DNA from: an uncultured Chlamydiae bacterium
GTDB taxonomy: Bacteria > Chlamydiota > Chlamydiia > Chlamydiales > SM23-39
Direction of reading: 5' to 3'
NCBI GenBank assembly: GCA_963730605.1
Contig: CAVSSM010000001.1
Location: 1-64,000, forward strand
Length of the DNA: 64,000 nucleotides
Shown: positions 6,732 through 49,660 of the stretch, piece by piece
How the letters are laid out: each line of letters opens with the position of its first letter
Position numbering within the stretch: the stretch's first letter is position 1
The notes under the pieces: model-generated
Told to the model about the DNA's origin: nothing
Databases searched by the model: none
What the model saw: only the letters and a program-made list of their open reading frames with translations
Program-made: the position numbers and the translations under genes

Positions 6732-7796
6732 CTAATTCAATAAATTTGCCTGTGTGCGTTCCATCACGTTTGCGATGTGTTTCTGGCTATAGTGGGCATA
6801 ACGCCTAGTCATTGTCGGCGTTTTATGTCCCAGAATGGCCATTAATTCTCCCTGCGTTGCACCACTCATCGCTAAAAAAGATGCCGCAGCATGCCTGAGG
6901 TCGTGAAACCGAAAATTTGGAATTTTTGCTCGATGAAGAGCTTTTACAAACGCATTCCGAATGTCTACCAATCCTGATCGATTGGTTGGACTGGTCGGTT
7001 TGAAAATCAGTCCAGATGCTATATCGGTCTTCTGCCAATTGACCAAAATCTTTTCTACCGTATCAGTTAAAGGGAGAACTCTTCTTTCCCCATTTTTTGT
7101 TTTTTCAAGAGTGATAGTCCGATTCTGACGATCGACGTCTTCCCATTTCAATCCAACAATTTCTCCAAATCGCATCCCTGTCAAAAGAGCCAAAGAAACA
7201 ATAGGAAAAAGATGGGGATTAGGGGAAAGCTTGCATTCCTGTAAAAGACGATCCTTCTCTTCTAGGCTAAGAAGCCGATTCCTTCCGTTCCCTTCAGATG
7301 GCTTTGAGACTTTTCTCATGGGGGTGTCATCAATCCATCCCCACTCTTTCATCGCAATAGTCAAAGCTCTCGAAAAAGCAGCTAGATATCGGTTAACCGT
7401 CGCTGGGTTTCGTAACTTTTGCCTAGTAGTGACCTCCGAGAGCAAAGAATCTCTCGCTTCAGCGATAACGGATGGAGTTAAATCCGCTAGGAGTAAATGG
7501 CCGAGCCTATCTTTCCACCAAGCAAGATAAGCCGTCTGTCTCACTACTCTCTCAGGAAACTGCGGCAACCACTGAGAAACGAACCTATCTATTAAATCTT
7601 TGACCGTATGCTTTTTGGCTTCAGCGATTCGAAAATGCCTACCGTCTCTAATCGACGATTCCGTGTCCTGAACCCATTTCTTTGCTAAAGTCCTGGTTCG
7701 GAAACTCTCCCTTTGAGGAGGGTAACCTTTTAGGCGGACTTCTGCATGGTAAGTGATTGTTCCGTCGTCCTTCTTGTATTCCCGAATTGTTGCCAT
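6732..7796 (-). CDS. Tyrosine recombinase / site-specific integrase
   Basis: Catalytic set TGMR, KTKNG, FHDLRH, LGH, RRYAH; N-terminal arm-binding-like region. Confidence 0.97.
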   Translation of the reverse strand: MATIREYKKDDGTITYHAEVRLKGYPPQRESFRTRTLAKKWVQDTESSIRDGRHFRIAEAKKHTVKDLIDRFVSQWLPQFPERVVRQTAYLAWWKDRLGHLLLADLTPSVIAEARDSLLSEVTTRQKLRNPATVNRYLAAFSRALTIAMKEWGWIDDTPMRKVSKPSEGNGRNRLLSLEEKDRLLQECKLSPNPHLFPIVSLALLTGMRFGEIVGLKWEDVDRQNRTITLEKTKNGERRVLPLTDTVEKILVNWQKTDIASGLIFKPTSPTNRSGLVDIRNAFVKALHRAKIPNFRFHDLRHAAASFLAMSGATQGELMAILGHKTPTMTRRYAHYSQKHIANVMERTQANLLN

Positions 7797-7926
7797 GACC
7801 CTCCAGATGCAAAGGGGTCATTCTAGAAAACACTGGAATAAACAGCAACAAGAGACGTATATTCTCACAGCCTTCAAGATGCATATACCTGATATTCAAT
7901 GATAAATAGATATTGCTATGTGCTGA

Positions 7927-7944
7927 TTACGCACTTATTACGCA
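7927..7944 (+). promoter_or_regulatory. TTACGCA-N4-TTACGCA tandem; putative integrase arm-type site
   Basis: Heptamers at 7927 and 7938; inverted counterpart at 9334/9345. Confidence 0.5.
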
Positions 7945-8132
7945 TTACAAGAATGTTTTACCATGTCCTGTCGCAAGGATTCCAGAGGGAGATGCTAAAT
8001 CTCCAAAAAACGAGTTGTTAAAATTCATACCCTTAGATATCCTCGTATTTAACTGTTTTTAAGACACTTACAATATATTGTGTTAAACTTTTGACGCTAC
8101 GGATGTTAAAGATCGACGGGAGGGGATGTTAA

Positions 8133-9281
8133 ATGACAAAGGCCGAATTTAAACACTATGACTTGACCTTGGTAGAGCCTACTTTTGACTCTCCTTTAAC
8201 GGACCTTATCATCGATTTGAACCATCTTCGAAAAAAACGTTTAGATGGGACGACTCCTTCCCAGGTTTTCTTCAACCTCAAGAGCATTTTTCATATGCTG
8301 GAGAGTATCGGCTCAGCTCGCATCGAGGGAAATAACACCTCGCTTCTTGAGTATATAGAGACCAAGTTGGAAGAGAAGGTTGATGTGCCTATGGGGGTCA
8401 AAGAGATCCAAAACATCGAAAGTGCCATGGATTTCATTGAAAACAACGTAAAAAAGCATCCGATCAATCGAGCTTTTGTCAGCGAAATTCATAGAATGGT
8501 TGTCGAGGGATTACCCACTTCGCCAAAGGGAGAGGGGGATAAAACTCCAGGTCAATACAGGAAGTCAAATTTACAAATCACAAAATCTAAGCATCTACCG
8601 CCAGAGTGGGTACTCGTTGATGAATATATGAATGAATTATTCGACTTCATCAATCAGGACAGCGGCGCAAAATTCGATCTGTTAAAAACAGCGATTGCTC
8701 ACCATCGATTCGTATGGATACATCCATTTGGCAATGGCAACGGACGCACAGTACGTTTATTCACTTACGCAATGTTGATCAAGCTCGGCTTCAATGTAAA
8801 CGTAGGGAGAATCATCAACCCTACGGCCGTTTTCTGTAATCATCGAAACAATTACTACAAATACCTCGAACAGGCTGATACTGGAGAAAAATCGGGCATT
8901 CTGGCTTGGTGTGAATACGTGCTCCGCGGTCTAAAAGAGGAGATCGAAAAAATCGACAAGCTTCTCGACTATGACTATCTAGCCAAGGAAATTTTGGTAC
9001 CCACAATCAACCACTCTCTCGAAAGAAAGTATATCACAGATGTCGAGGCAAAAATATTGAGAATGGCTGTCGAGAAAAAAATGATCCAATCGAGTGACTT
9101 GAAAGAGATCTTTCAAGGAAAACACGGCGCAGAACTGTCTCGACAAATCAAGAGGCTTGTGGATAAGAAAATGCTTCAACGCATCGGCTTCAAAGACTAC
9201 GTCATCAGTTTTGGCGACAACTACTTACTTCGAAGCATCATGAAGGTGCTGGGAGACAAAGGATTTTCTGCCTCACCTTGA
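8133..9281 (+). CDS. Fic-domain protein (class II-like, with N-terminal inhibitory motif)
   Basis: HPFGNGNGRTVR Fic motif; SARIEGN matches (S/T)xxxE(G/N). Confidence 0.95.
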   Translation: MTKAEFKHYDLTLVEPTFDSPLTDLIIDLNHLRKKRLDGTTPSQVFFNLKSIFHMLESIGSARIEGNNTSLLEYIETKLEEKVDVPMGVKEIQNIESAMDFIENNVKKHPINRAFVSEIHRMVVEGLPTSPKGEGDKTPGQYRKSNLQITKSKHLPPEWVLVDEYMNELFDFINQDSGAKFDLLKTAIAHHRFVWIHPFGNGNGRTVRLFTYAMLIKLGFNVNVGRIINPTAVFCNHRNNYYKYLEQADTGEKSGILAWCEYVLRGLKEEIEKIDKLLDYDYLAKEILVPTINHSLERKYITDVEAKILRMAVEKKMIQSSDLKEIFQGKHGAELSRQIKRLVDKKMLQRIGFKDYVISFGDNYLLRSIMKVLGDKGFSASP

Positions 9282-18036: not shown

Positions 18037-19187
18037 CTACAGCGTTTCATTAATTTTGCCAATTGTGGGGTAAAGCTTTTTTAGCTTGATTCTTGCGTCC
18101 TCAACTGTGAAGCGCCAGTCTATAACATGCGCATCCTTGTTTCTGCCCTCTAGCCAGGAGGCAACTTCTTTTTTAACCTCGACTATGTCTCTTAGGCGTC
18201 GGTTTAAACATTGCCTGGAAAGGTGGCTTAATTCGATTTCTGCCATGTTTAACCAGCTCCCATGTTTCGGCGTATAACGAAATTCCAGACGGTCTACGAT
18301 CCTTTTCGCCTCTTTGGGCGGCAGAAGCTCATAAAGAGCAGCACCTGTATGGATATTTAAATTATCGCAGACCAAGAGGATCTTTTTTGCCTTGGGATAA
18401 TGCTCCTCTACAAGTTTCTGTATATGTTTGGCCCAATCCAATCGAGTCCTTCTCTCCGAAACATCAATGTATCGTTTCCCTGTTAGTGGCTCAAAACTCA
18501 GCAGAATATTACTCACGCCATTGCGCTCATATCCTGTATCAAAGCGTTCAACCTTACCTCGTTTTGCTGGAATGTTATCCAGCTTTCCTGCCTCGTGTTG
18601 CTTACTCGACTCATCCATGCAAATCATTGGATATTCTGGATTGTATGGGCACTTATAGAGGCCTAACACATTTTCCATTCGGCAAACAAAGTCAGCGTTT
18701 TCCTCAGGAGGAATACACCATTCTTTCTTTAGCCAGGGCTTAAGTTCATTTTTTTTAAAGTGCGATGGACTGTGCTTCTGGAAATAGAATCAATAACTTC
18801 TAGCTGAACCAGTCTTTCGCTTAACAATCTCAAGGTCCATTCTTTGCGCCCTTCCGGAGGGGCCCCGCAACATATGGCAACCAGATGGGCTTCTTGATCA
18901 CCATCGAGTTTTCTTGGTTTGTATTGGCGATGTTTTTTTCGGTGCAAAGCAGCTTCCAGTCCATCGTTTGCGAAAGATTCTCTGACTCGATGTACAGTGC
19001 GTTCGTGAATATTCAACCCTGCCGCAATAGCTTTTGCTCTCAAACCCGGCCCCTCTTCACCAGAATCTGCCTGCAATAGTATTCGAGCATGAGTGATTGT
19101 TTTTGCCTTCTGCTTTCCTTTATGCACAACTTCGAGTAATTGCTTGCGCTGACTAGGTGTTAACTTGACTTTATACTTCTTTCGCAT
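18037..19187 (-). CDS. IS630 transposase in two ORFs (HTH and DDE) joined at an A-run
   Basis: ORF1 MRKKYKVKL..WTLRLL; ORF2 CMDE, CDNLN, YTPKHGSWLNMAEIE; slippery TTTAAAAAAAATG near 18746-18759. Confidence 0.9.
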
Positions 19188-19268
19188 ACCTGCACTCCCA
19201 CGAATTTTACAAGGCGTCAAGTATATTTTTTATCAAGAAATTATGTCAAAATTAATGAAACGCTGTAG
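18037..19268 (-). mobile_element. IS630-family insertion sequence
   Basis: 22-bp inverted repeats CTACAGCGTTTCATTAATTTTG / CAAAATTAATGAAACGCTGTAG with TA duplication at 18035-36 and 19269-70. Confidence 0.95.
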
Positions 19269-19348
19269 TACTGGACAAAAAATAAATTGATGAAAACAAC
19301 TCGCTGAAGAGCGATCATATCTCGTTGGTTATCAAACAGCGAGGTACA

Positions 19349-20425
19349 ATGAAACACATCAGCGAGTTGCGAGCAATTTTATCCCACTTCTTTGATTGGC
19401 ACAAGTGCCGTCTCGACTGTCTAGGGCAAATCATTCAGGCTCTGTTCGTCGTCAGAACCATAAACCTGACCCAAGTCGCTTCAGCCTTCAAGTCAGAGGT
19501 CAAGGAGGAGTCATCGTATCGTAGAGTCTGCCGATTCTTCACTGGTTTTACCTTCGACATGAGTAGGATCGTCCTTCTGGTTTTCCGCCTGTTTCCACTC
19601 GGAGATAAGTGCACCCTAATCCTGGATCGCACGAACTGGAAGTGGGGAAAAACTCCCATCAATATCTTGATGCTCTCGATTGCCTACAGAGGTATCGGCA
19701 TTCCACTGTTCTGGGTGTGCTGAATCTTGAAGGCAACTCATGCGCGGAGGACAGGATCGATCTCCTAAAGCGGGTCGTGGAACGCCTCGGGATCAGCAGA
19801 ATCGAGGTACTCCTCGCGGATCGCGAGTTCATAGGAACGCAGTGGTTTCTCTTTCTGATCGAACAGAAGATCCCGTTCATCATCAGGGTTAAACAGAACT
19901 CCATGGTCGAAATCGGAGAGAACGGCAAACTTCCAATAGGACGCCTACGGAAATGGCTCTCACGGAAAAAAGTTGTGAATCACCCCATTAATCTCTGGGG
20001 TCTTTCCCTCTACGTTTCGATCGAAAAGAGAAAAGGCGCCAAGGAGCAAATGATCGTGGTCTCCAACTTCAAATTCGAGGATTCTCTGGGGATGTATAGG
20101 AGGCGTTGGGAAATCGAAACCATGTTCGGTTGTTTGAAGACCCGTGGGTTTCGAATGGAGGACACTCACATCACCGATCCAGACAAGATTGAGAAGGTGG
20201 TGTTCGTCCTGGCGATCGCTTTCTGCTGGGCATATCGAATGGGGGATATCCAGGATTCAGATACAGGCGATAGAGGTCAAAACTCACGGGAGAAAGGCGA
20301 GGAGCCTCTTTAGGGAGGGGCTAAATCTGATCCGTAGGGCGATTTTTGGGAGGTGGGTTCTGAGAAAATTCAGGCGACTACTTTCGTGTTTTACGTGTTC
20401 AGAACCAAGGACTTGCTCGGTATGA
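19349..20425 (+). CDS. IS4-family DDE transposase split over three frames
   Basis: LILDRTNWKWG, LLADREF, YRRRWEIETMFGCLKTRGF, KTHGRKARSLF. Confidence 0.88.
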
Positions 20426-35752: not shown

Positions 35753-37652
35753 TCACTTCTCTGCCGGAGCGACGACTTTTTTTACCTTTTGGGTGGCGAT
35801 GCGAACCCCGCGAGTGTGAGCTCCTTTGACAGGCGCCTCATCCAGGGCATAGACTAGGCTTTTCACTTTCTGCTTGCTTGGGATGAAAAGCAGTTCGACC
35901 GTAAGGCTTGGCTTATCCGAGATGTGGAGCAGCTCGCCATTTTCATCAAAATAGCGGTAGGGCTTGTCGAGGATGAATTTTTCGACGACAAACCGTTTGG
36001 CCCAAGCCTGCCCCGATTCTTTCATCTTGTAGATGACATTCATCATCGTTTTTTTATCAGCAACCCCTACCCAGACGGCCTGTTCAAAATACTGTTTCTC
36101 AGGGATATTGACCACTTTGTAGGTGCCATCTTTGTGAAAGATCAGTAGTTTGTCGAAATTGGTGCAATGGAACTGGACGGGGCCTGAGATTTTGGTGCCG
36201 ACAAAGCCTGAGTCGGGATCAAAGCCCACTTTGATGTTCTTTGTTTCGATCGCGCGGCGGTCGATCTCTTCGATGGCTTTGATCCGGTTTTTCTGAGGAA
36301 AGTCTTTCCCGAACTTTTCGATGAGGCTTTCAGATGTACCGAATGGTGAACTTTTTGACATTTTTGAGATTTTTTTCCACCTCCTGCTGCGACTCTTAGG
36401 AGCCTGCGATCTCCTCTAGGTTCTTATCGATGTCAAAGTGGGAGATGCGCCGGATCGGGATTTGGAGCAGTTTTTCCCGATCATCATGCGTAGGATCGCG
36501 AAGAAGTTTTTTTCGGAACGGCTTGAACGAGGCTTCGAGGGTCTCATGGATCCCTTCGAGGGTTTTGACCGTCTCGATTTTCTTATAGATCTGATTTTCG
36601 ATAAAAATTCTCTCGAGCGTCCTGATAGAAGATCTTCTCTTCGAGCCGCTCTCTTTCGATTTCAAGCTCCCGCTTGAGAAAATCGACGAGTTTTGCCGCA
36701 TTGTAGACAAGGATTTCATGGACATCGGTCTCCCAAGGGAGGCCGTCTTTGATCACGATGATCTGAGAGTTGAGCGAGACTTCGCACTCGGTAAAGCCAT
36801 AGAGCGCATCGAGAATCTCTTCGGCATATTGTCCCCGCGGCAGCTTGATCTCGATTTCGATCGTCTTCAGCCGTGTAGTCGTTGATCGCCTCGATTTTGA
36901 TCTTGCCTTTTTTCGCAGCCTCGTCAATCGAGCGGATTAGGCTCTCGGTCGTCGTGCCGTAGCAGATCTCCCTGATGACAAGAGTTTTCGGGTCTTTGAT
37001 TTCGATTTTGGCGCGGAGTTTGACTTTGCCGCGCCCCTTGTCATATTCGCTCTTGTCCATGATTCCCGCCAGTCGGGAAATCAGGAAAGATCTTGAAAGG
37101 CTTTTCCTTCGAAGGTAAGCGATCTCCGCTTCGAGAAGTTCTGTGAAATTATGAGGCAGGATATGAGTCGCCATCCCGACTGCGATCCCGTCGGCCCCTT
37201 GCATGAGCAGAAGAGGGATTTTCGCGGGAAGGGTGACGGGCTCGAAATTCCTCCCGTCATAGGAGGGGATTTTTTCGGTGATGTCGGGATTGAAAAGCGT
37301 CTCGCTGGCTAGGGGAGAAAGGCGCGTTTCGATGTAGCGGGCGGCGGCCGATGGGTCTCCCGTGTAAATATTGCCAAAATTTCCCTGCCGATCTAACAAC
37401 AAAGCCTTTGTTGGCGAGAGTGACCAGCGCTTCATAAATCGGAGCGTCACCATGGGGATGGAGCTGCATCGTTTGGCCGACGATGTTGGCCACTTTATGA
37501 AGCTTGTCATCGTTTTGCCGCCATAGGGTTTCGAGAATCCGCCTTTGGACAGGTTTGAGACCATCGATCACATTGGGGATGGCCCGATCGAGAATGACAT
37601 AGGAGGCGTATTTGATGAAGTGATCCTTCATCTGGTTTTTCAGATCATCCAT
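35753..37652 (-). CDS. parC: DNA topoisomerase IV subunit A (chlamydial GyrA-2 type), multiple frameshifts
   Basis: RAIP..DGLKPVQRR, HPHGD, AAARYIE, GIAVGMAT across five ORF fragments. Confidence 0.9.
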
Positions 37653-39456
37653 TTACTCTTCGCTCACAAGATTGTTCATGATAAAGTCTTTCCTCGCAGG
37701 CGTATTTTTGCCCATGTAAAATTCAAGGGTCGGCTTGATATCGGAGAGATTTTGGATCATCACGGGCAAAAGCGGATATCTTTCGCGATAAATTGCTTAA
37801 ATTCATTGGGAGAGATCTCTCCAAGCCCTTTAAAGCGGGTGATTTCAACCCCTTTCTTGAGTTCTTTGGCCGCTTTTTCCTTCTCTTCTTCTGAATAGCA
37901 ATAGATCGTCTTTTCTTTATTTCTCACTTTGAATAGAGGCGTTTCAAGAATATGAAGGTGGCCGTTCAAGACGAGCCCTTCAAAATAGGTCAAAAAGAAG
38001 GTGATGAGCAGGTTGCGGATATGCATGCCGTCGACATCGGCATCCGTTGCGAGGATCACTTTGTTGTAGCGAAGATTGGAAAGATCCTCTTCGATATTGA
38101 GCGCCGACATGAGATTGTACATCTCTTCATTTTTATAGAGCTGATCGAGCTTCATCCCATGGACATTCAGCGGTTTGCCGCGAAGAGAGAACACGGCTTG
38201 GGTCAGCGGGTCGCGGGTCATGACGATCGATGCGGAAGCCGACTCTCCTTCCGTGAGAAAAATCACCGAGCTTTCCCCTTCTTTCGAGCCGTCGCCGAAA
38301 TGGAATTTCGAATCGCGCAGTTTGGGGATCTTGAACGAGATCTTTTTTTGCTTTTCTTTGGCCTCTTTTTTGACTGCCGCTAGCTCTTTCCTCAGCTTTT
38401 CATTGAAAAGGATCCGCTCGACGATCTTCTTGCCGGTCTCCTCATTTTTATAGAGAGGTTTTGGACAGCGTCTTTGACCTCTTGGACAATGGGAGCGCGG
38501 ATCTCGCTGTTCGACAATTTATTCTTCGTTTGCGATTCAAAGACGGGATCTTTGACTTTGATCAAGATGGTCCCCACAATCCCCTCGCGCACATCGACCC
38601 CTTGGAAGTTTTTCTTTCGCGTACTCATTGACCCCTTTAAGATCCCCTCCCTAAAAGCCGAAAGATGGGTTCCTCCATCTTGGGTATATTGCCCATTGAC
38701 AAACGAGAAATAGGTCTCTCCATAGCTCGAGGAATGGAGGAAGGCGAACTCGATGTGCTTTCCCCTATAGTGCAGCGGTTCATAGAGGCGGTCCTCTTTG
38801 ACCTCTCCGTTCAAGAGATCGAGAAGCCCATTTTCCGAACGGATCTCCTCTTGATTGAAAATAAGGGTCAGCCCCGCATTGAGATAGGCATAGTGCCAAA
38901 GACGTTTGACGATCAGTTCCTTTCGGAAGGAAAACTTCTTGAAGATCTCAGTATCGGGAGTAAATTCGACCCACGTCCCGTTCTCTTCCTTGGTTTTCCC
39001 CTTTTTCTTTTCCTTGAGAACGCCTTTGAGAAAGCGGGCTTCGACAAATTGCCCATCGCGGGAACTTTTCACGATGAACTGAAAGGAGAGGGCATTGACG
39101 GCTTTCGTTCCGACTCCATTCAACCCAACAGAAAACTGGAAGACGTCGTCATTGTACTTGGCGCCCGTATTGATCTGGCTGACGCACTCGATGACCTTGC
39201 CTAAAGGAATTCCCCGCCCCCAGTCCCGTACGGTCACCGTTGACGTCTTCTCATTGAGGCCGATCTCGATCTTCTTGCCATGGCCCATGATGAACTCGTC
39301 GACGGAGTTGTCGATCACCTCTTTGATCATCACGTAGATCCCATCATCCGGATGGGAACCATCTCCCAACCGGCCGATGTACATCCCTGGACGGAGCCGA
39401 ATATGGGCCAGGGCGTCCAGAGACAAGACGGTACTCTCGTCGTATTTTTTAGCCAT
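37653..39456 (-). CDS. parE: DNA topoisomerase IV subunit B (GyrB-2 type), frameshifted
   Basis: RPGMYIG, EVIDNSVDE, GLNGVG, TEGESA, LRGKPLN, TDADVDG, RFKGLGE. Confidence 0.92.
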
Positions 39457-42722: not shown

Positions 42723-42826
42723 TATTTACTCCTGTTAATTTGGACAACATTTTATCAGAAACCGAAATTAAAAACAAACTATTCTTACCAATAAGTCATT
42801 TCTTGAAAAAACTCATAAGAGGCTGA

Positions 42827-43001
42827 GAGGGTGTCTACAATGTGAGGTTCTGTCGATTTTTCGGTTCTTTTGAGCCGATTTTCGATTCAAGACTTGGGGG
42901 GCAATATCGACAACAGTATATGGCCCCCCAAGCTTTGAAGTCGAAAAGCGGCCAAAATAATCCAAAAACTCGGGCGTTCCCTCACTTTGTAGACACCCCT
43001 C
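42827..43001. mobile_element. MITE family C copy 2
   Basis: Same ends as 25538-25709, flanked by TGA/TGA. Confidence 0.88.
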
Positions 43002-43216
43002 TGATATTCGGTGAGTTTGAGATGGCCTTGAGAGGTGCAAGAAAACGATTTAACGATAGAACTATAAAAAAATATAAAGGCAGAACGCGTCCTTGCCGCG
43101 TAATCTCCTCATCGTTACATCGTTATATCGTTTTATCGTTCCTCTTTGCTTTTTAAACACAGATTTTTCCCATGTACCCCCTTCTCTAATAAACCGCCTC
43201 CGAGTAAAAGACAGAT

Positions 43217-46801: not shown

Positions 46802-47788
46802 ATGGCAGTACAATTAAGTCGCATTTCCGGAGCGCAAACTCTAAAGCGGCCTATTCCCCAAGAGGCGAGGGCCTCTTCCCCCACTTCCAGAGTCTCCAAA
46901 GCCTACAGGGCCGTGGAAAAAGGGTGGAGCTACGGAGGAAAATCGCTGACAGTGACTCGGCATATCTTGAACGCGGGCCTGCGCGCCTCCCTTTGGGAAG
47001 GGAAAGAGACGACGGGAAAAGTCCAAAGCGTCATCTCACGCTCCAAATTATTCGCCGCGCTAGGTGTTGGTTTCAATCTGGCCACCTTCTCTACCCATGT
47101 GGGAAAAATACGGAAAAACTTCGAGCGGAGCGACATTGAGGGGCTCTCTCTTGCGCTGCTCACTTTTACCATTCTGATTGGAGACACCCTCGATTCTATA
47201 TTGACTTCTGTCAATGGAGCGATCGAGACTCTCGCCCTAACGCCCAGCCAATGGATTGCCTCTATCGGCTTGCCCCTTGGATTTGCCATCATGAGTTTGG
47301 GATCCCTCTCGCGCGCAGTGCGGCTTTATCATCTCCATCAAGCATCGAACGCGCTGGCCCATGTTGACTTTATGAAGACATCCGGCATGAGGCCGCAGGA
47401 AATCCATAGAGCGGTCACCCGATTTTTGAAAACCTTAAGGCTCGATGACCCGAAAGAGCTGGCCGCAATAGAGAGACATACCACAGACGGTGCGGCAAAG
47501 CTTTTGAAAGACCTCTCCTCTTCTTTGGAGAAGATCGACTCGTCCAATGAAAAGAACATGGCAGAAGTTGTGGAGACCTTTCATCGCATCCAAAGACACC
47601 TCCGCGAGGAAATGGCGATCCAAATAGCTTACAGCGCGACAAACCTCCTGCTCTTTACGTCGCTTTGCCTCATGGTCGCTTCCGCCGCAACGGCTCTGCC
47701 CTACATCCTCTTGGGGACGGCCTGGACCGCAAGGCTGCTCATCCAGGCCTATCAGGACCTCCAGCAAGATACTCTCCCTTACGCATAG
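46802..47788 (+). CDS. Hypothetical membrane protein (Inc/effector-like)
   Basis: Ser/Pro-rich N-terminus and several hydrophobic hairpins. Confidence 0.7.
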   Translation: MAVQLSRISGAQTLKRPIPQEARASSPTSRVSKAYRAVEKGWSYGGKSLTVTRHILNAGLRASLWEGKETTGKVQSVISRSKLFAALGVGFNLATFSTHVGKIRKNFERSDIEGLSLALLTFTILIGDTLDSILTSVNGAIETLALTPSQWIASIGLPLGFAIMSLGSLSRAVRLYHLHQASNALAHVDFMKTSGMRPQEIHRAVTRFLKTLRLDDPKELAAIERHTTDGAAKLLKDLSSSLEKIDSSNEKNMAEVVETFHRIQRHLREEMAIQIAYSATNLLLFTSLCLMVASAATALPYILLGTAWTARLLIQAYQDLQQDTLPYA

Positions 47789-48249
47789 ATCAGAAGAAGA
47801 ATCGACATAGCGACCATTCCCAGATCCTCGGTCAAGGTCACAGTCGAAAGAGGCACATCGAGGATAGTACCCATGCAGGCGCACTTGACATTAAGACTTT
47901 TCATCAAAGCCAAGATCACCCCAAGAGCCCCGGCGCCCAGAATAAGGATGGTCAGGATCGCGGTCGCAGTCGGCAGAAAAAAAGCCAGGTAGCTTAAGCC
48001 TAAAACAAGCTCGATTAAAGGGTAGGCAAGAGCATAAATGCGGCTTTTTTTTGCGATGATATCGTACATCTGGAACCCATCGGCAAACTGGATGGGATTG
48101 AAGAGTTTCAGAAGAGCGAATTGACAGAGGAAAAATCCCATGAAATAGGACATCCAGCTCATCCAGCCTTTCTGGGAGCCCCAAACAATGGCCCCAGCTG
48201 CAATGGCAGCGATGAGTATCAGACAAACTAAGGGCCAATATTTTTTCAT
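47779..48249 (-). CDS. MauE/DoxX-like membrane protein
   Basis: FMGFF..F.LLK, F..YDIIAK, YPLIELVLG, CACMG, TLTEDL. Confidence 0.85.
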   Translation of the reverse strand: MKKYWPLVCLILIAAIAAGAIVWGSQKGWMSWMSYFMGFFLCQFALLKLFNPIQFADGFQMYDIIAKKSRIYALAYPLIELVLGLSYLAFFLPTATAILTILILGAGALGVILALMKSLNVKCACMGTILDVPLSTVTLTEDLGMVAMSILLLIYA

Positions 48250-48260
48250 GAAAACTTATG

Positions 48261-48653
48261 TTACCAAAATGAGGATATGTCCAGCTCAAGAATATAGGGC
48301 TCCCCAAACTCCTTCTGATAGAGGATCGAGGTCAAGCCCCTCGCCTCTTCCATGAAAGCTTTTTCCTCGGGCCGAGATTTCCTTGCCGGGGTGTGATGCA
48401 GGTATTCCCCGAAAATGTTCAAACAGTCGCGCGTGTACTCCACTGTGTGGAGGATGTGCTCATGCCAAGCTTCGTCGATATCCGCCGCCGGCGCGAGCAC
48501 CTTTTCGGGGTGCCTTGTCAAAAGAATGAGGAAATTCTTATATCTCCTCACCGTCTCTTGAGCATCCTGCTCACCCCATTCCTTGAGATCTATCAACCTT
48601 TCCTCAAGAAACCTAAGATCCAATTCCTTTATCCGGGCTTCTTGGGACAGCAC
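48261..48653 (-). CDS. GRDP/DUF1399-like protein with clustered His residues
   Basis: YKNFL, P..DIDEAWHEHILHT..Y..DC..FG.YLHH.P. Confidence 0.8.
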   Translation of the reverse strand: MLSQEARIKELDLRFLEERLIDLKEWGEQDAQETVRRYKNFLILLTRHPEKVLAPAADIDEAWHEHILHTVEYTRDCLNIFGEYLHHTPARKSRPEEKAFMEEARGLTSILYQKEFGEPYILELDISSFW

Positions 48654-48925
48654 TTGGCCTCCTGCATCTCTCCTAATGCGGCCCTATGCAGCGCTTCCTC
48701 GGAAAGTTCCTTGAAATTCATGGGGCGGTTATGGAGGCGGATGACCCACTGGTCCTTCTCTTCGACAGCAACGCGCACATCGAGCGCATGGGGGATTTTC
48801 TCCATCCCCATCTCCTTCAGGGCGGCTTTCGGGTTTACCTTGAGCTTATCTTTGAAAGCCGGATCTTTCCAAGCGCGTATGTTGATTTTCGCTTCCGTTT
48901 GACGACGATCGAATGGTTCGGACAT
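48629..48925 (-). CDS. NHLP (nitrile-hydratase-like leader) RiPP-precursor-like protein
   Basis: EAKINIRAWKDPAFKDKL..NPKAAL..VEE..ELSEEAL..AALG then a short tail; AAGGAAGG RBS. Confidence 0.85.
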   Translation of the reverse strand: MSEPFDRRQTEAKINIRAWKDPAFKDKLKVNPKAALKEMGMEKIPHALDVRVAVEEKDQWVIRLHNRPMNFKELSEEALHRAALGEMQEAKCCPKKPG

Positions 48926-48946
48926 AAGACACCTTCCTTTTTAATA

Positions 48947-49143
48947 CCGCTCGTGACTGAAAAATCGGTTTTGGTGCGGCGTCGGCTTCTACTCAGATTT
49001 TTCATCTTCGCTTCGGTCCTTGCCCTTGGCAATGTCCCTCGCTCCAACTGAAAATTCTGAGGAGCTGCTTCGCTCAAAAACAGTCCCCCGGACTATTTTT
49101 GAGTGTCCGCAGTGCCCAATTCCCGTTTTTCAATCACTCCCGG
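48947..49143 (-). mobile_element. MITE-like element family A, basic copy
   Basis: TA-flanked inverted repeats; reverse complement matches 12692-13000 minus two inserts. Confidence 0.85.
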
Positions 49144-49264
49144 TATATGGTCTTAAAAAATTTCTTTAACAGAGAGGCTCTCCAAAATCAACCCCTGCCC
49201 GTTTATATCAATTGCCATTAATCCCATAATTAGTTAAATTACAATGAAAAAGATAAGGCGATTT

Positions 49265-49660
49265 ATGAGTTCTATCTTTCCAATTTTTAACTATCCAAAT
49301 ACAAACGAACCAAAAAATAAAGAAAACATCGTCTATCATTATCATAGAATTGAAATCGTAAATCCCAAACAATCAAACTCCTCTGAGCCAGGCTTTCCTC
49401 CAACGCGTATCGCTACGATCAAAAGTATCGGGGCCGATGTCCTGATTTGCCTGGGATCGCTGATCGGACTAATAGCCGGGATGGCGCTCGCCTTGCAAAG
49501 CGCAGGGCTTGCCTCGCCGGCGCTTACAATCCTCGCTACTCTTCTCATGCCCGCGGTTGCGGCCATCCTAGCCGGATCCCATTTGTCTAAACCCGATTTA
49601 AAACCCGATACAAAGCTCAGACTCTCTACTGGGATACCTGGCCTTACCTTCAATTCATGA
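49265..49660 (+). CDS. Putative inclusion membrane (Inc) protein
   Basis: Hydrophilic N-terminus and an uninterrupted bilobed hydrophobic stretch of about 45 aa. Confidence 0.65.
   Translation: MSSIFPIFNYPNTNEPKNKENIVYHYHRIEIVNPKQSNSSEPGFPPTRIATIKSIGADVLICLGSLIGLIAGMALALQSAGLASPALTILATLLMPAVAAILAGSHLSKPDLKPDTKLRLSTGIPGLTFNS

Follow-up and report, generated by a model that had tools for sequence, protein, structure and literature searches.

Comparative evidence supports a functional link between an NHLP-like precursor gene with a cysteine-bearing tail and the GRDP-like (UCP032817-like) gene that overlaps its end, both on the minus strand of a 64,000-nucleotide (nt) stretch from an uncultured Chlamydiae bacterium (GenBank assembly GCA_963730605.1, contig CAVSSM010000001.1, positions 1 to 64,000; the whole stretch is referred to below as the window). 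A gene for a MauE-family membrane protein follows them closely but, judged from gene neighbourhoods across the phylum, the conserved unit is the NHLP-like/GRDP-like pair and not the trio. We read the pair as a two-gene module resembling those for ribosomally made, post-translationally modified peptides (RiPPs), in which the GRDP-like protein would be the tailoring component for the Cys-bearing tail, a reading that we consider evenly poised between right and wrong. The cluster would then be of the RiPP type with a candidate new maturase family, and has a fair chance of defining a new class.

To describe the distribution of the pair we used a sample of 401 Chlamydiota genomes, in 400 of which NHLP matches were scored. 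The GRDP-like gene was present in 18 of the 401, including the window's own genome, and in none of the four same-genus genomes of that sample. A match to the NHLP model TIGR03793 was located on the same strand within ~1.1 kb in 14 of these 18 GRDP-bearing genomes, nine of which (the window counted) have the window's spacing; any NHLP match at all was found in 52 of the 400 scored genomes, and in 38 of the 382 other than the GRDP-bearing ones. The adjacency spans several families of the phylum and three different gene orders. In more distant chlamydial relatives, for example, the GRDP-like gene comes first and the NHLP gene lies downstream of it, with different Cys-bearing cores. Scores against TIGR03793 in the genomes with window-type spacing run from 46.7 to 57 and so straddle the curated cut-off. 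A prediction made earlier from the window's letters alone (the original prediction) had treated all three genes as one cassette and had made its case depend on a conserved neighbourhood and a conserved tail. For the pair both were found, the C-C-P of the tail being present in 12/12 aligned loci in addition to the adjacency in 14/18 genomes; the same comparison did not bear out MauE as an integral third member. NHLP precursor genes are in any case common in the phylum, with up to 12 or 13 matches per genome and often in tandem arrays (for example in genomes G253, G323, G031 and G099), and several of them adjoin fused YcaO genes of 735-793 amino acids (aa).

The strongest comparative evidence for a functional link comes from fusions and export clusters in chlamydial relatives. 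For example, a 459-aa protein (L018:3270-4646) joins an N-terminal winged helix (PF21084), a TIGR03882 domain and a C-terminal GRDP-like (PF07173) domain, and its gene directly follows that of a TIGR03797-type NHLP export ABC subunit. Similarly, genome G244 encodes a 468-aa TIGR03882 fusion (L085:4986-6389) whose C-terminus is 45% identical to the window's GRDP-like gene product over 115 residues. TIGR03882 is the model for the 'TOMM precursor leader peptide-binding protein' (TOMM, thiazole/oxazole-modified microcin), and scores 73.9 in the former and 71.5 in the latter against a threshold of 36.9. The gene order in G244 is fusion, NHLP gene (53.7 vs 50.9), HlyD-type TIGR03794, TIGR03796 C39-peptidase ABC exporter (890.7 vs 853.3) and TIGR03797; the GRDP-like domain is the sole component of this cluster that serves neither as transporter nor as precursor, and YcaO was not found in the genome, which is 90% complete. 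Free-standing GRDP-like genes lie beside NHLP genes and the same transporters at L020, at L087 (genome G159) and at L088 (genome G088). A GRDP-like domain placed behind a leader-binding domain would occupy the position expected of an effector enzyme. At another locus (L017:4776-6687) the start of the GRDP-like gene is overlapped by a gene for a family-1 glycosyltransferase, an NHLP gene comes after, and the glycosyltransferase may be an extra tailoring step in that lineage.

By curated tests the window's precursor is not a clean member of the NHLP family, yet on profile evidence it clearly belongs to that clan. It matches TIGR03793 with 47.4 bits (E 1.3e-12) over profile positions 2-76 of 77, below the curated cut-off of 50.9, and matches PF02979 (NHase_alpha) with 33.3 bits against a threshold of 27.2, over profile positions 40-85 of 184 only. 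In the parts of Haft et al. 2010 (PMC2887384) available to us, NHLPs are described as lacking the nitrile hydratase active site and as having a leader that ends in a Gly-Gly motif. The window's protein does show homology to nitrile hydratase alpha without the metal-binding active site, stopping at 98 aa. A Gly-Gly cleavage motif is absent: the protein reads A-A-L-G-E-M where its orthologues read A-A-G-E, A-M-G-E or A-S-G-E/D, always with one Gly. The NHLP export cassette (TIGR03794/03796/03797), present at L018, L020, L085, L087 and L088, was not found in the window's own genome (2.2 Mb, 12 contigs, 83% complete), and neither was a C39 peptidase; a tblastn search of that genome with the L085 cassette returned generic ABC matches only (<=31% identity, permease/ATPase part) and no HlyD match. 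The single NHLP match and the single GRDP-like match of this genome are both located at the locus described here.

The GRDP-like protein scores 37.1 against PF07173 (formerly DUF1399; gathering threshold 22.7, E 6.1e-9), the match being limited to positions 95-143 of the 143 in the profile, its last third, and its gene scored 34.6 bits in a six-frame search of the genome. Precomputed labels assign PF27765 (UCP032817-like) to 31/31 homologues, one of them 95% identical, and to 54-90% of the members of the nearest Atlas clusters, a look-up that returned the family's own clusters only. MauE matches PF07291 over the full domain (48.4 vs 27, profile 6-127 of 128). Thus, of the profile searches that the original prediction had proposed, those for GRDP and MauE came out as it expected and that for the NHLP leader fell under the curated cut-off. 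The three packed open reading frames (ORFs) that it described were present with the motifs it quoted, including D58, D60, W63, H64, H66, C77, H86, H87 and P89 in the translation of the GRDP-like gene, and the AGGAGG-N4-GTG start of the second gene was found inside the end of the first.

No canonical maturase stands beside the trio, as had been noted originally, but the precursor might still be served by one encoded elsewhere. In the window's own genome no YcaO and no LanC-like gene was found, and another contig holds an MNIO cluster and one radical SAM/SPASM gene. Across the phylum, co-occurrence indicates that no canonical maturase is tracking the pair. YcaO is encoded in 35/401 genomes, in 3/18 of the GRDP-bearing ones and in 0/9 of those with window-type spacing, and the corresponding counts for MNIO are 139/401, 4/18 and 3/9. 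A LanC-like gene was present in one of five tested window-type genomes, on another contig. The radical SAM/SPASM protein, used as a query, was not found in 6/6 other genomes with the window-type pair; among chlamydial genomes other than the window's own, the count without a match to this query was 10. It has 290 aa (L084:9843-10712), lies 2.3 kb from the MNIO cluster and is below every NCBIfam cut-off, its best match being to the tungsten-cofactor oxidoreductase maturase with 79 vs 380. The MNIO cluster is bufferin-like and located on the minus strand (L084:5813-7953, contig C7 of this genome, G000, at ~117812-119952); it comprises an MNIO gene (PF05114, 321 bits), a DUF2063 partner and a gene for a 111-aa precursor that bears a signal peptide and Cys-rich repeats of the G-C-x-G-K type, and has no adjacent DoxX gene.

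These genes on contig C7 suggest an alternative in which the MNIO/DUF2063 pair or the radical SAM/SPASM protein acts in trans to modify the Cys-Cys tail, with the GRDP-like protein as a bystander. All of them are indeed encoded in the same genome, and the DoxX gene usual in bufferin clusters is missing from the MNIO cluster; MauE belongs to the same clan as DoxX. Cysteine is moreover the target of MNIO enzymes in the accessible portion of PMC12452194. Nevertheless, the sole MNIO of the genome has its own adjacent precursor, MNIO genes are found in fewer of the GRDP-bearing genomes (4/18) than the overall frequency (139/401) and in a third of the window-type genomes, and the radical SAM protein has no family assignment above cut-off and, used as a query, found no counterpart in the six window-type genomes searched. 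We judge modification in trans by either enzyme to be very improbable.

A different alternative, put forward with the original prediction, was that one A is missing from the assembly at about 48654, that a single leader-enzyme fusion has thereby been split, and that the Cys-Cys tail is an artefact. Inserting one A at this position would mechanically join both frames. The worry about the assembly's error rate is also a fair one elsewhere in the genome: prfC is spread over three ORFs (L084:8017-9605, contig C7) and gyrase/topoisomerase-type pieces lie at window positions 36719-39456, either as assembly indels or as pseudogenes. At this site, however, the sequence is right. Homologues of the GRDP-like protein were searched for between 71 and 228 aa, a range in which a fused form of ~215-225 aa could have shown up, and 21/31 of them have exactly 130 aa, the longest having 166 aa; a word search of longer proteins also found no fused form, which is weak evidence. 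The same two-frame overlap of 25 nt recurs in 12/12 loci of a DNA alignment, with the NHLP frame ending 22-25 nt past the start of the GRDP-like frame in L003-L014. Instead of the read check at 48645-48660 that had been suggested, we can point to a 470-nt contig of another run (X1), perhaps from the source sample, which spans 48222-48691 with 0 differences and 0 gaps and so agrees with the given sequence across the site; contigs of runs X2 and X3 lie outside the overlap region. Homologue lengths, the recurring overlap and the matching contig together refute the fusion, and we regard an assembly frameshift here as next to impossible.

The tail itself has a second role in the DNA. Orthologous NHLP precursors are 55-66% identical and end in Q-E-A-K-C-C-P-K plus two or three variable residues, and the original prediction overlooked that the ribosome-binding site and the start codon of the GRDP-like gene are encoded within this tail. 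In 6/12 aligned loci the codon for Q is CAA and the site reads AAGAGG. The start codon of the GRDP-like gene (ATG, GTG or TTG, depending on the locus) is made up of the third base of the codon before the first Cys and the TG of that Cys codon; the residue preceding the first Cys may be K, S, E or T, its third base always completing the start codon. The second Cys codon provides most of the Leu2 codon of the GRDP-like gene. Therefore, conservation of the tail is doubly constrained, because the QEAKCC codons encode the Shine-Dalgarno sequence, the start codon and Leu2 of the downstream gene.

It follows that the two genes might be neighbours without a shared function, the tail being kept only for the ribosome-binding site and start codon that it supplies. 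That AGGAGG, spacer and start codon all fall within the Q-E-A-K-C codons is what this explanation would predict, as is the freedom of the residue before the first Cys to vary provided that a start codon results. It sits poorly with the adjacency in 14/18 genomes from several families in three gene orders, and with the fusions and export clusters of the relatives. The variation within the overlap also speaks against it. Eight single-base variants were seen in the 13-nt overlap core, of which four are silent in the NHLP frame but change the GRDP-like frame (one of these merely turning GTG into ATG) and none shows the reverse, while one is silent in both frames and three change both. The third bases of the Cys2 and Pro codons vary, silently for the precursor yet altering residues 3 and 4 of the GRDP-like protein, so that C-C-P is invariant while those two residues are not. 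In addition, the N-terminus of the GRDP-like protein is not conserved outside this subgroup, and Cys-bearing cores persist in chlamydial relatives whose gene order differs and whose genes do not overlap. The silent variants in the NHLP frame, the poorly conserved GRDP-like N-terminus and the retention of Cys without the overlap suggest that the peptide frame itself is under selection, with the caveat that the numbers are small. We therefore consider neighbours of unrelated function quite improbable.

The standing of MauE as a third member is weaker than had been proposed. A MauE gene behind the pair was found only in the window and in L003 and L004 (same-genus genomes G426 and G423), so the trio is confined to the window's genus. 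Orthologues of MauE occur in 18/101 genomes of the family, mostly without the pair, and in 4/6 other genomes of the genus; in G197 and G241 MauE is present and a GRDP-like gene is not. In G241, from a sister species, the syntenic site holds MauE by itself, next to the same inclusion-membrane-like gene and 94-aa gene as in the window, and the pair, the repeat upstream of it and a 138-aa ORF are all absent between those genes. The CxCMG motif is kept in 11/12 aligned MauE sequences (the window's and 11 orthologues), and the neighbours of the orthologues vary. From this synteny it appears that the pair is inserted, or has been retained, directly upstream of a resident MauE gene in this genus. The gap between the GRDP-like and MauE genes is 11 nt, a spacing that makes co-transcription likely, and the three genes probably share one transcript. 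A scan of 47500-49400 gave neither a sigma-70-like minus-strand promoter from the NHLP gene to 49240 nor a terminator behind MauE, but it omits chlamydial promoter types and nothing follows from it. MauE may share a function with the pair. No methylamine dehydrogenase or MauD gene was seen among the Pfam hits of the window or beside the 11 MauE orthologues, although no search was aimed at mau genes.

The GRDP-like protein belongs to a very large family. With a profile of its subgroup, 14,647 clusters (50% identity) were matched at E <= 0.001, and the number at E <= 1e-10 was 6,728; most are proteins of 125-185 aa. In 80 ORFs from the fetched loci, Y38, D60, W63, H64, H66, I67, Y73 and H87 were present in 80/80, C77 in 75/80 and H86 in 68/80. 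The invariance of D60, W63, H64, H66 and I67 is partly due to selection, because these residues were part of the pattern by which the loci were found; Y38, Y73 and H87, lying outside that pattern, are alone free of this bias. An AlphaFold model of the protein has a six-helix all-alpha fold with a mean predicted local distance difference test (pLDDT) score of 82 and a predicted template modelling (pTM) score of 0.79. DinB-like, HD and ferritin-like proteins were considered as relatives of this model, and no claim to any of them can be made, no solved structural relative having been found. The original prediction had also proposed co-folding the precursor with the GRDP-like protein. Co-folding with both alignments gave an interface score (ipSAE) of 0.45 (0.42-0.49 in three runs) as against 0.00 for the best control, with contact agreement of >= 86% and a partner pLDDT of >= 82. 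This contact above controls was graded 'weak support', a mark reached by 116/157 solved complexes and 2/215 mismatched pairs, or, at ipSAE <= 0.60, by 18/157 solved complexes and both of the mismatches.

Long members of the family (30 were scanned) consist mostly of tandem GRDP-like domains, with no recurrent enzymatic partner and with single fusions to tyrosine-phosphatase, chorismate lyase and SUMO-like domains. In two proteins, P0065 (248 aa) and P0070 (298 aa), a window-type GRDP-like domain is followed by a protein-tyrosine-phosphatase or a chorismate-lyase domain; these could be true fusions or gene-calling run-throughs. A Parafilimonas metagenome-assembled genome (MAG) carries two GRDP-like paralogues side by side (L031:3438-5011), one with its own Cys-rich C-terminal tail, followed by a 71-aa peptide with DnaJ-type CxxC zinc-finger repeats. 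Our search of the open-access literature, with subscription journals outside its scope, returned nothing that links GRDP-like, DUF1399, PF07173, UCP032817 or PF27765 to RiPPs or NHLP, and no paper on UCP032817-like (PF27765) proteins; the DUF1399 papers, as far as their accessible text goes, concern plant GRDPs.

A second, unrelated type of candidate precursor is associated with GRDP-like genes in proteobacterial, mostly gammaproteobacterial, MAGs. Downstream of the GRDP-like gene, one to five genes in tandem encode basic peptides, amounting to 39 peptides in 21 loci, ~17-34 aa long and mostly 19-22 aa. Of these, 33/39 are located <=1500 nt from the GRDP-like gene, 31 are on its strand and 33/39 have a Shine-Dalgarno match upstream. 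They end in A-x-x-A-x-C-x, with A at position -7 in 31/39, A at -4 in 34/39 and Cys at -2 in 34/39, and in pairs of paralogues 69/154 single-difference codons are synonymous. Peptides chosen from downstream of GRDP-like genes served as seeds of the profile, which in the final search was run over both strands of entire loci. Examples are L024:6425-7119, L033:4899-6890, L045:7926-8899 and L038:5293-5768, with 17 further loci. Taken together with the chlamydial data, these peptides allow a broader reading in which the GRDP-like/UCP032817-like domain would be the enzyme that defines a RiPP class not yet described, would modify a near-C-terminal Cys and would have been recruited at least twice, to the NHLP precursors of Chlamydiota (either on its own or in fusion with a leader-binding domain) and to the tandem ~20-aa A-x-x-A-x-C-x peptides of uncultured Gammaproteobacteria. 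We hold this broader reading to be possible, though somewhat on the doubtful side.

Many of the tandem-peptide loci also contain a convergent gene for a single-pass membrane protein of 134-275 aa with two conserved Cys (L051:7015-7701, L059:6913-7674, L057:6770-7528, L030:6855-7556, L070:6634-7236, L036:6671-7498 and L068:6875-7279). Homology was detected among at least seven of 12 such proteins compared; 22 proteins were scanned, and the 12 among them matched 0 Pfam families and no NCBIfam family. At a Legionellales locus (L026), a 50-aa peptide with three Cys near its end is encoded directly upstream of the GRDP-like gene.

How the window's module might work can be outlined as follows. A precursor with a conserved tail (consensus Q-E-A-K-C-C-P-K) would be translationally coupled to a small all-helical GRDP-like protein, which would bind it and act as a tailoring enzyme, or as the catalytic half of one, on the cysteine or cysteines near the C-terminus of the bound precursor. 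His64, His66 and His87, along with Asp60, Tyr38 and Tyr73, would probably provide a metal or redox site. The resident MauE, with its conserved CxC, could pass on or take up redox equivalents, but would not be needed by the module elsewhere. Because the genome has neither an NHLP export cassette nor a C39 peptidase among its detected genes, the product, instead of being secreted as a bacteriocin, may be a small modified protein that stays inside the cell. Binding, catalysis, metal use, the cysteine target and the role of MauE are all what we infer from conservation and gene context.

The main rival to a tailoring role is a GRDP-like protein that partners the NHLP-like protein without catalysis, as a chaperone, an immunity or sequestering protein, or the other subunit of a small heterodimer that binds metal. 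In the last version the two proteins would be the counterparts of nitrile hydratase alpha and its partner or activator, and the Cys-Cys tail would be a metal ligand and not a modification site. That the leader of the 98-aa protein is itself well conserved, at 55-66% identity, fits such a role. With no cleavage motif, C39 peptidase or export cassette, the whole protein may also be the functional unit, the co-fold (0.45 vs 0.00 for the best control) gave weak support for contact, and the GRDP-like family is huge and mostly free-standing. However, fusion behind a dedicated leader-peptide-binding domain would make a second pure binding module redundant, and in those fusions the GRDP-like domain is placed where YcaO sits in fused TOMM enzymes. 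The invariant His/Asp/Tyr set resembles an active or metal site more than an interface, and the proteobacterial peptides have a single conserved Cys (34/39 at -2), which alone is a poor metal site. Cyclodehydratase-docking fusions are mentioned in the available excerpts of Haft et al. 2010 (PMC2887384). On balance we find a purely non-catalytic partner rather unlikely.

Several observations weigh against a tailoring role and against the pair as a dedicated peptide module. Four of the 18 GRDP-bearing genomes have no adjacent NHLP match (G130, G273 (contig edge), G106 and G038). In the window the NHLP score falls short of the curated cut-off and a Gly-Gly motif is missing, and the QEAKCC tail doubles as the Shine-Dalgarno sequence, start codon and Leu2 of the GRDP-like gene. 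YcaO is encoded in three of the 18 GRDP-bearing genomes, and in G159 it lies ~9 kb from the GRDP-like gene, beside further NHLP genes, perhaps in one large cluster, so that the GRDP-like protein could be an accessory there. The family is huge, and among the members examined, leaving aside Chlamydiota and the proteobacterial MAGs, most lack a neighbouring gene of peptide type, so that the general function of the domain cannot depend on NHLP. Foldseek found no match to the GRDP-like model in the PDB at E <= 0.001, the top Z among 48,161 chains compared with VIA-align was 4.1, far below a meaningful level for helical bundles, and the lowest E when PDB sequences were searched with a profile was 1.1. 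Support from the co-fold is weak. A naive test for small ORFs with a Cys tail found no enrichment, with 59/79 GRDP-like loci against 84/134 displaced control windows, and a strict regular expression for Cys-tailed peptides matched at one locus only; the tandem-peptide result needs an unbiased repeat, because its seeds were ascertained and this cruder test showed no enrichment. RNA evidence consists of one 250-nt contig over MauE, with the NHLP-like and GRDP-like genes uncovered, and its 11 differences in 248 nt indicate that it derives from a relative. Chemistry, metal and product are, finally, all predicted only.

The window's pair shares features with several known systems. The NHLP export systems, as presented in the accessible sections of PMC2887384, have the same nitrile hydratase alpha-like leader and a short Cys-bearing C-terminal region, and relatives of the pair adjoin exactly their three-gene cassette. 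In contrast to those systems, whose cores are hypervariable, the core in the window is conserved, the Gly-Gly motif, cassette and C39 peptidase are lacking, and the companion gene is GRDP-like and not YcaO, LanM or radical SAM. TOMM cyclodehydratase complexes, in which a leader-binding C protein or TIGR03882 domain works with a YcaO D protein, are mirrored in the TIGR03882 domain fused to an effector at L018 and L085, beside NHLP precursors and transporters, and in the shared Cys-containing cores; the effector here, however, is a helical GRDP-like domain of ~120 aa without similarity to YcaO. Bufferin/MNIO clusters, made up of precursor, MNIO, DUF2063 and DoxX genes, in the available text of PMC12452194 and PMC11626156, likewise involve Cys-targeting of small peptides with a DoxX/MauE-type membrane protein nearby, whereas the pair has no neighbouring MNIO/DUF2063 genes, its NHLP-like precursor has no signal peptide, and the membrane protein is of the MauE family (PF07291) and not DoxX (PF07681). 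Plant GRDP1 and GRDP2 (DUF1399) share the motif region W-H-x-H ... H-H-x-P of PF07173 but are long, multi-domain proteins tied to stress and development phenotypes, and not assigned a biochemical function, in the portions of the literature accessible to us, while the bacterial form is a stand-alone domain of 130 aa. The window's MauE resembles its counterpart in methylamine dehydrogenase maturation in its family score, its predicted multi-pass membrane topology and the CxC kept among chlamydial orthologues; it differs in following a cytoplasmic peptide/partner pair, and does so in one genus only.

NHLP precursors without an identified maturase have been an open problem since the family was described: some members occur in species that lack TOMM or lanthionine enzymes, according to the parts of Haft et al. 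2010 (PMC2887384) at hand. The GRDP-like protein would be a concrete and testable candidate, as it is the only gene travelling with these precursors and also has leader-binding fusions and a second, independent set of candidate substrates. If the broader reading of a new RiPP class is true, a family of >14,000 sequence clusters, plant GRDP stress proteins among them, would gain its first biochemical function. Proof of a modification would moreover establish a new peptide chemistry, allow thousands of genes to be annotated, those of plant GRDPs included, and mean that modified peptides are produced by obligate intracellular, chlamydia-like bacteria in the absence of an export system.

Table 1. 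Features of the NHLP-like/GRDP-like/MauE locus, in window coordinates.
Feature	Position	Strand	Remarks
NHLP-like precursor gene, 98 aa	48629-48925	minus	~85-aa NHase-alpha-like leader, then tail EMQEAKCCPKKPG
GRDP-like / UCP032817-like protein, 130 aa, GTG start	48261-48653	minus	PF07173; candidate peptide-modifying partner
MauE-family membrane protein, 156 aa	47779-48249	minus	PF07291; probably co-transcribed, not a conserved module member
25-nt overlap of the NHLP-like and GRDP-like genes	48629-48653	minus	consistent with translational coupling
Putative core/tail, including stop codon	48629-48670	minus	C-C-P invariant in 12/12 aligned loci
AGGAGG ribosome-binding site of the GRDP-like gene	48658-48663	minus	Q-E-A codons of the NHLP tail
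GTG start codon of the GRDP-like gene	48651-48653	minus	after CCAA spacer, inside the NHLP gene
GRDP-like motif block D58-P89 (D-x-D-x-x-W-H-x-H-I-L ... Y ... C ... H-H-x-P)	48387-48482	minus	
MauE CxCMG motif, residues 123-127 (CACMG)	47869-47883	minus	
Copy of a ~200-nt dispersed repeat	48944-49150		directly upstream of the NHLP-like gene; blastn

The repeat upstream of the pair (48944-49150) gave 62 blastn rows, including the self-match, on eight contigs of the genome, its longest copies being 90-95% identical, and it may carry a promoter. Contigs from other runs break at 48944, at 49014-49018 and at 49065, that is, at the edges of the repeat. One copy is located near the MNIO cluster (C7:123654-123963). 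Another short repeat of ~150-190 nt, at window positions ~42818-43019, has dozens of matches in the same-genus genome G197 with 75-97% identity, often at contig ends, and is probably a genus-wide dispersed element. Mobile-element genes are located in the first third of the window (6735-9278 and 18040-20310), with a phage-type integrase adjoining a Fic-domain gene, and with three ORFs of transposase type (DDE_3, HTH_32 and DDE_Tnp_1).

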